From: Escherichia coli
Lineage (GTDB): Bacteria; Pseudomonadota; Gammaproteobacteria; Enterobacterales; Enterobacteriaceae
Assembly (NCBI RefSeq): GCF_044647545.1
Contig: NZ_CP172818.1
DNA length: 64,000 nucleotides
Direction: 5' to 3' (one strand)
In this document: positions 46,569 through 47,405 of the stretch, piece by piece
Layout: the number at the start of each line of letters is the position of its first letter
Numbering within the stretch: position 1 is the stretch's first letter
Made by a program: the position numbers and the translations under genes
Notes under the pieces: generated by a model
Told to the model about the DNA's origin: nothing
The model's database searches: none
The model's input: only the letters and a program-made list of their open reading frames with translations

Positions 46569-47405
46569 CGTAACTCTGGCCAGTACGCTTTGTTGGCCTC
46601 CAGCAACTCATCCAGAATAGCTTTGGCGACCGAGGCGCTCGGTACCGTTTTCGACAACGTAATCGCCTGCCACAGGTGCTGATATGAACGCTGTTCCCAG
46701 GCGTCCACGACCAGTTTTTCCACCGTCACTTGCTGACTCATTAACCCTTTCTGAAACTGCGGGATATCGCCGACCACCATTTCCCACAAAAAACAAAAAA
46801 AAAAAGTGGTTCAGGCCGTAGTAGCGCACGCGCATCTGTTTGCGATCTTGCAGCCCAACAATTTGCGCCATCCGGCTTTCAATACCGATTGGCATGTCAC
46901 AGATGTTGAGGATTTTCGCATTCGGGCGCAGACGACGCGTGGCTTCTGCGACAATGGCTGCCGGGTTGGAGTAGTTGAGCATCCAGGCATTTGGTGAATA
47001 TTTTTCCATATAATCCACCAGTTCCAGGACGCCGCCAATGGAACGCATGCCGTACGCTATTCCGCCGGGTCCGCAAGTTTCCTGACCAACAACGCCGTGG
47101 CGCAGCGGGATTTTTTCATCCAGTTCGCGCATCGGGTATTTGCCGACGCGGATGTGCGCCATGACAAAATCAACGTCGCTGAATGCCACTTCAGGATCGG
47201 TGGTGTAACTAAACGCAATGTCCGGCGCTTTTTCTTTAAGGATGACTTTACAGGCTTCGGCAATCACTTCCTGCCGCGCACCATCGTTATCATAAAATTT
47301 CAGTGCACGAAGCGGGAAACGGTCCTGATTCGCCAGGAGCATCAACACGATGCCTGGCGTAAAGGTGCTTCCACCGCCTGCGACAACCACTGAGAATTTG
47401 GTCAT
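46565..47405 (-). pseudogene. glvG: 6-phospho-alpha-glucosidase (GH4 family), truncated and frameshifted
   Basis: N-terminal GH4 region ([24 protein letters not shown]-binding) breaks at a homopolymer run at 46786-46803 and resumes in another frame; total span about 280 codons versus about 440 for intact GH4 enzymes. Confidence 0.8.

Follow-up and report, generated by a model that had tools for sequence, protein, structure and literature searches.

The 64,000-nt stretch of E. coli DNA analysed here (further referred to as the window) contains a remnant of glvG, a gene for a GH4 6-phospho-alpha-glucosidase, and within it, at 46780-46810, an A-rich tract to which the earlier note had attributed the disruption of the reading frame. 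The locus raises the question whether such a tract belongs to a bacterial chromosome or only to its written record. Almost nothing specific on glvG was found in the literature. The window was aligned to FDAARGOS_497, in which a 440-aa 6-phospho-alpha-glucosidase is annotated, and to K-12 MG1655; in addition, the region 46500-47450 was compared by megablast with 5,426 complete E. coli genomes, and alleles were counted in the same 5,426 genomes by a sensitive search with 46700-46900.

The lesion in glvG

The tract is present and its minus-strand reading is as had been noted. The + strand at 46783-46809 reads CCCACAAAAAACAAAAAAAAAAAGTGG, with an A6 run (46788-46793), a C (46794) and an A11 run (46795-46805), which together form the pattern A6-C-A11 at 46788-46805. 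The run is not a matter of chance: the window holds 89 A11 matches versus 0.43 expected from shuffles, all 89 lie on the + strand and at 25.6-25.8 kb, 35.2-36.7 kb or the glvG site, and the longest homopolymer elsewhere in the 64 kb, with these three corrupted places excluded, is 8. The features of the locus that follow from the alignments are:

46565..46779, minus strand: GH4 C-terminal 71 codons and stop, out of frame with the N-terminal part, error-free
46780..46805, strand not assigned: 26-nt A-rich filler TTTCCCACAAAAAACAAAAAAAAAAA, defined by the alignments to K-12 and the intact allele
46805..46812, plus strand: 8-bp direct repeat AGTGGTTC, of which only this copy is left, defined by the three-way alignment
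46806..47405, minus strand: glvG N-terminal 200 codons, Met1-His200, ending at the LNH motif, error-free

The window is 508 bp shorter at this locus than the intact 440-aa GH4 gene, and the 26-nt filler stands at the junction, which is written as CACCA-TTTCCCACAAAAAACAAAAAAAAAAA-GTGGTTCAGG (filler-bearing sequence across the junction: CACCATTTCCCACAAAAAACAAAAAAAAAAAGTGG). The filler is composed of T-T-T, C-C-C and then A-runs and holds both the A6 and the A11; its placement at 46779-46804 is equally valid because A flanks both sides. The intact allele reads GACCACC-AGTGGTTC-TGG...(508 bp)...CCAA-AGTGGTTC-AGG, with the repeat flanking the 508-bp segment on both sides, and K-12 reads CACC-AGTGGTTC-AGG, having lost one repeat and the intervening DNA in a clean 508-bp deletion between 8-bp direct repeats. 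The bases missing from the window are the same ones that are deleted between the two AGTGGTTC repeats in K-12 glvG. The alignment to an intact GH4 gene that the earlier note had suggested thus points to another cause for the frame disruption, chiefly the missing 508 bp, whose loss shifts the frame by itself, as in the 212-aa K-12 stub; the A-rich 26-mer sits on that junction. The frame would be broken even without the filler, and the tract, as filler on a deletion junction, did not originate as a run within a coding sequence.

The identity of the remnant, which had been proposed from the letters alone, is borne out by Pfam. PF02056 (Glyco_hydro_4) covers residues 6-184 of the 265-aa ORF (E 9e-67), and of the GH4 C-terminal domain PF11975 only profile positions 166-211 (the last 46) are left, in a 74-aa ORF (46565..46789). 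The sequence VVAGGGS at residues 7-13 shows that the GGGS motif of the NAD-binding Glyco_hydro_4 domain is present, as are the metal-binding/catalytic motifs NICDMP (Cys-Asp) and LNH (His) in the N-terminal part. Absent from the window are codons 201-369 (169 codons, PF11975 positions 1-165), and the downstream catalytic Tyr of GlvA presumably falls in the equivalent region. The minus-strand 265-aa ORF (46608..47405) runs through the A-rich tract and continues past it with a nonsense tail, in a frame other than that of the true C-terminus in the 74-aa ORF; neither a complete in-frame PF11975 nor a single ORF of ~440 aa was found. With its C-terminal domain incomplete, glvG in the window is predicted not to specify a functional GH4 6-phospho-alpha-glucosidase; in the text as it stands the locus is a dead gene.

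Alleles of glvG and the lineage of the window

The best megablast matches of 46500-47450 are 100% identical and come in two pieces, spanning 1,433 bp for the 951 query bases. Among the matches listed, all of the 40 closest genomes span 482 bp more at glvG than the window does, which implies that the gene is intact there. The product of this intact 440-aa allele, the allele of all closest genomes among the matches listed, is WP_022646301.1, a GH4 homologue of B. subtilis GlvA and K. pneumoniae AglB; it is identical to the window in both retained parts and carries codons 201-369, which the window lacks. At the nucleotide level the N-terminal part (46806..47405) has no mismatch to the intact ST648-type gene and none to K-12, and the C-terminal part (46565..46779) has none to the intact allele and one to K-12 (46726, T vs C), so that the two parts together (815 nt) are 100% identical to the intact allele and differ from K-12 at one base in 815.

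The K-12 pseudogene, a 212-aa 'putative inactive 6-phospho-alpha-glucosidase' stub, concerns the same gene with the same 508 bp missing and identical N-terminal 200 codons, in line with a description of the K-12 homologues of aglA/aglB as cryptic or truncated (PMC5309279). Besides the base at 46726, it differs from the window in three respects: its junction is a clean CACCAGTGGTTCAGG, whereas the window has 26 A-rich bases in addition; the frame after the junction gives the 212-aa stub and not a 265-aa ORF; and the neighbouring PTS EIICB gene is a pseudogene in K-12 and of the intact ST648 type in the window. The comparison with K-12 glvG that the earlier note had proposed consequently finds no such tract in the reference and does not refute the note. 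Its remark that glvG is a known truncated pseudogene holds for K-12 with its 212-aa stub; it probably does not extend to the window as a pseudogene state of the strain, the gene being intact in 40 of the 40 closest genomes listed.

The glvBC-type PTS EIICB gene (47405-49021) shows no difference from FDAARGOS_497 and is not the internally stopped K-12 pseudogene, and yidP (49317-50033) lies in the same operon context. This context, with PTS EIICB intact, argues that the real strain would have a working glv system.

The K-12-type clean junction, recognizable as a single alignment with a 26-nt gap, was found in ~2,619 genomes and the intact gene (two pieces) in ~1,655, which means that ~61% of the glvG-bearing complete genomes have the K-12-type deletion. 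The filler itself was present in none of the 5,426 complete E. coli genomes, where even the best-ranked record covers only 90% of 46700-46900. Exact-pattern scans with the whole junction and with its left half found no match in GTDB representative genomes or JGI metagenomes, and an exact look-up of the 265-aa ORF product found no record.

With respect to lineage, the window matches FDAARGOS_497 at 100.000% identity over 1-15016, with 0-1 substitutions in a further 19 kb and at 99.9% identity over 37-57 kb, whereas its identity to K-12 is ~97%. The best matches include strain 'ST648' and many ST648-type isolates, and the backbone of the window is of the ST648 type. Since this is so and an intact gene is present in 40 of the 40 closest genomes listed, the pseudogene here is probably an artefact too: to judge by the close relatives, the underlying strain probably carries the intact 440-aa gene, and a clean K-12-type deletion in the real strain is the lesser possibility.

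That lesser possibility, in which the real strain has the K-12-type 508-bp deletion and only the 26 inserted bases are spurious, has in its favour that both flanks in the window stop at the same bases as in the common K-12 allele and that these flanks are so nearly those of K-12. We nevertheless consider it improbable. Apart from the intact gene in the closest genomes listed, the base at 46726 is T as in intact alleles (a single SNP and as such a weak marker), and 23 of 23 sampled deletion-type records show the identity value expected for the other base, from which it would follow that the deletion in the window was not inherited with the common deletion haplotype. The clean junction CACCAGTGGTTCAGG is not found in the window, where the 26-nt filler stands instead, and the sampled deletion-type records all align with a 26-nt gap. 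With both the junction and the linked SNP mismatching, the window does not seem to hold a bona fide K-12-type allele. Moreover, all other corruption in the window lies at sites at which the strain has more DNA than K-12. Had there been a clean deletion, one would therefore expect it to have been rendered without damage, which is largely the case for the deletions of the yidI region and of 130 bp.

Damage elsewhere in the window

The earlier note had remarked on the likeness of the tract to two larger blocks, and this likeness was confirmed: the strand, the A-rich collapse and the kind of site are the same. The two blocks and an after-effect of the second are located as follows:

25270..25989, plus strand: corrupted block 1, defined by alignment to FDAARGOS_497 (gap in K-12 homology at 25180-25989)
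34924..36737, plus strand: corrupted block 2, in place of a 3.3-kb uhpA-ilvN island (two hypothetical genes in relatives) that is absent from K-12
36754..36960, minus strand: after-effect of block 2 in ilvN, 10 substitutions in 207 nt (Q64*, N57K, M65V, D84N, A92V)

Block 1 copies, in register but with progressive degradation, a RelE/ParE toxin and HTH antitoxin module, which is absent from K-12 and sits between nepI and yicN in ST648-type genomes. An example of the degradation is the real CTGACGAAAGCCCAACTAACAGCAATG that has become CCTACCAAAACCCAAACAAAAAAAAAG; the block ends in G16 and A10 runs, and the sequence recovers abruptly at a REP element. In block 2, G drop-outs are followed by smeared sequence and then by ~1.3 kb of A-rich noise, the A fraction climbing from 0.41 to 0.81, with recovery at the ilvN 3' end. 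It is collinear with the real island for only about the first 500 nt, and after ~35,440 no similarity to that island above control was found. Repeated k-mer counts in its A-rich noise are within shuffle expectation, so generator loops are not indicated; the sequence AAAAACGAAAACA occurs three times (36430, 36550 and 36667, at a spacing of ~118-120 nt), which is not significant by shuffle. Residual errors, including the nonsense codon, run 220 nt into ilvN (36738-37028), and the best match of this segment among 5,421 genomes is 96.6%, versus 100% identity of the neighbouring core DNA to relatives. The IlvN protein is identical in K-12 and ST648 genomes, and we read Q64* and the missense changes as an after-effect of the corruption that is unlikely to represent a real pseudogene.

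Three junctions other than that in glvG have no natural counterpart: those at 15017, at 23857-23900 and of block 2. At 15017, the sequence continues after yicH with the next 10 bases of K-12, CATCAATCTC, and then jumps 6.7 kb downstream, into the ST648 PTS-fructose/aldolase/BglG-antiterminator island where the same 10-mer recurs; this junction is absent from all complete genomes searched. At 23857-23900, the 18-kb island of the ST648 relatives with the ETT2 type III secretion remnant, eilA and iatC is absent, and in its place stands a yicS-nepI spacer that resembles that of K-12 except for the loss of 2 nt and for 2 odd substitutions; its best natural match is 93.8-94.5%.

The distribution of the errors over the window is strict. 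Relative to the ST648 relative, all 94 indel columns fall within the 3,489 positions without K-12 homology (5.5% of the window) and none within the other 60,511, and six of the seven non-K-12 segments are damaged, among them segments of only 48 and 31 nt. That DNA absent from K-12 is rendered as garbage is nevertheless a matter of degree, because the 528-nt non-K-12 segment at 15027-15554 has only three single-base indels (15201, 15283, 15381). In blocks 1 and 2 the errors increase rightwards along the + strand and stop abruptly at the boundary of K-12 homology, the direction of decay being 5' to 3' on the + strand in every case.

The spectrum of the errors is equally one-sided. Of the substitutions, 110 lead to a letter earlier in the alphabet (T to G/C/A, G to C/A, C to A) and 20 lead the other way; in the corrupted blocks T became C 23 times and C became T not once, and A was almost never altered. 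The deletions at the onset of block 2 (34,924-35,440) removed 54 G, 48 T, 24 C and 4 A, and in its first 230 nt G accounts for 26 of ~33 drop-outs, counted before the terminal gap run of the alignment (40 deleted bases overall). The wrong base mostly equals a neighbouring real base, with a mild bias to the left in the run-extension (left vs right neighbour 79 vs 61 and 28 vs 19) that does not decide between an autoregressive process and a symmetric blur. An A<C<G<T-ordered bias has no chemical or biological rationale, and substitutions that run down the alphabet point to software rather than chemistry; tie-breaking at index 0 ('A'), zero-filling or a collapsing decoder would, we infer, produce such a bias.

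Within the glvG filler, the first 8 nt match real offsets 16-26 of the missing segment once these are depleted of G (p ~0.01, post hoc), and the right-adjacent offset of the filler against the 508-bp segment gives 11/26, in the top 2.5% of offsets (post hoc). Other descriptions of the damage were tried and rejected. The filler is not a length-preserving, position-by-position mask of the real sequence (best ungapped match against the 508-bp segment 13/26), nor is block 2, and a reference bias towards K-12 outside the junk was discarded with only 27 of the 56 substitutions there corresponding to K-12 alleles.

Several other regions of the window deserve mention. Small indels occur at 42255-42287 and 62981-62983 (GTA lost, A and AA gained, a 9-nt loss), where ST648-type DNA replaces the yidI and the REP cluster of K-12, following the same site rule on a small scale. 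The divergent allele of dinD (776-988), ~60% identical to K-12 and of the same length, was copied without error; divergence alone is therefore no trigger, and extra length relative to K-12 is. The dgoT-dgoR region (56010-60828) has 45 substitutions in 4.8 kb with respect to ST648 relatives, between identical flanks, and no genome is closer than 99.1%. Of its 38 genic substitutions 30 are at third codon positions; ~18 bring back the allele that every other sampled lineage has, and another 15 are private, most of them G to A or C to T. These substitutions look like natural polymorphism and could reflect a natural recombination tract or a mixing of haplotypes by the generating process; they are evidence neither for nor against corruption.

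Origin of the tract and its meaning

Taken together, we consider it very probable that the glvG tract is a data artefact and no property of a bacterial chromosome, produced by the same corruption as the damage elsewhere in the window. This assessment draws on direct observations, namely the location, direction and spectrum of the errors and the uniqueness of the junction. As would be expected of an artefact, no independent sequence of this lineage or species that was searched contains the tract, and its error signature (strand, direction, symbol-order bias and type of site) is common to the other damaged places. Several points count against it: the end points coincide with a natural and very common K-12-type deletion at an 8-bp direct repeat, the corruption at glvG is only 26 nt long and thus much shorter than blocks 1 and 2, the matches between filler and real sequence are weak (p ~0.01-0.025, post hoc), the non-K-12 segment at 15027-15554 has so few indels, and neither of the two candidate processes discussed below accounts for all observations.

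The window may be pictured as a rendition of an ST648-type chromosome that is letter-perfect where it is collinear with a K-12-like core, made by a writing process that would fail where the strain carries DNA absent from K-12. On entering such a segment the process would first drop bases, mostly G, then smear neighbouring bases into runs with a bias to the alphabetically lower letter, and finally collapse into poly-A and/or skip ahead, to lock on again at the return of K-12-homologous sequence. One such segment would be the 508 bp missing from glvG of K-12: ~8 recognizable, G-depleted bases (TTTCCCAC) would have been emitted, followed by A-runs, and the process would have locked on again at AAAGTGGTTCAGG, the A-rich right edge of the segment (AAAGTGGTTC), leaving a stump of 26 nt.

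That the process was computational we infer, and there are two candidates for it. In one, ST648 reads may have been polished or merged into a consensus on a K-12-like backbone, with 'A' chosen at ties. This explains the perfect core, the K-12-like spacer, the loss of large islands and the restriction of damage to insertions; a pile-up consensus does not explain the jump at a 10-mer or the shrinkage of 508 bp to 26. The other may be a neural decoder or generator with a strong prior for the core genome. A decoder explains the jumps at repeated k-mers, the build-up of errors, the poly-A collapse and the renewed lock at A-rich anchors; a free-running generator does not account for 15 kb that agree perfectly with one lineage, unless real sequence was its input. 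Low-complexity collapse artefacts likewise show a progressive, one-directional decay, an end in homopolymers and an abrupt recovery, and long Evo 2 generations have been reported to collapse into homopolymer runs (bioRxiv 10.64898/2026.01.17.700093). In contrast to such collapse during generation, here 60 kb is letter-perfect for one natural lineage, and real data of that strain must therefore have entered the process.

A genuine allele, in which a deletion at the AGTGGTTC repeats or a recombined K-12-type allele later acquired 26 bp of A-rich filler, is a very unlikely source of the tract. The tract does stand in the window sequence, and filler DNA at deletion junctions is known from other systems; replication slippage, filler synthesis during end-joining, or an untemplated or RT-mediated addition of A might be invoked here, although a genuine allele together with any such source is hardly to be expected. 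No filler is left by recombination at short repeats, nor is there any in the ~2,600 natural deletion alleles; the filler is unique with respect to the 5,426 genomes, the GTDB representative genomes and the metagenomes; and its strand, composition and type of site are those of two blocks that can be shown to be garbled versions of real genes. We give equally little credence to the more specific version in which an ST648-like strain suffered an independent repeat-mediated 508-bp deletion, sealed by 26 bp of untemplated A-rich filler, and the larger A-rich blocks are unrelated sequencing failures. If it were true, the filler would be the trace of a repair activity, by end-joining or A-tailing, that has not been described for E. 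coli. A phase-variable (contingency) homopolymer, through which slipped-strand mispairing would switch the glv operon, is effectively refuted: a run of A11 has the length needed for appreciable slippage, but no run length would restore an enzyme that misses 169 codons of its catalytic C-terminal domain, no relative has a run here and hence there is no length polymorphism, and E. coli core genes are not known for phase-variable homopolymer switches.

Returning to the artefact, the A-rich tract in glvG is almost certainly not a real feature, and the glvG pseudogene, the ilvN nonsense codon, the garbled toxin-antitoxin module, the A-rich 1.8-kb block and the three chimeric junctions very probably all go back to one corruption. 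The tract would have no biological significance, and the finding is of use for quality control: novel features should not be sought in the window wherever it departs from K-12-collinear sequence. The combination of indels confined to segments absent from a reference-like genome, decay in one direction and substitutions down the alphabet provides a usable diagnostic.
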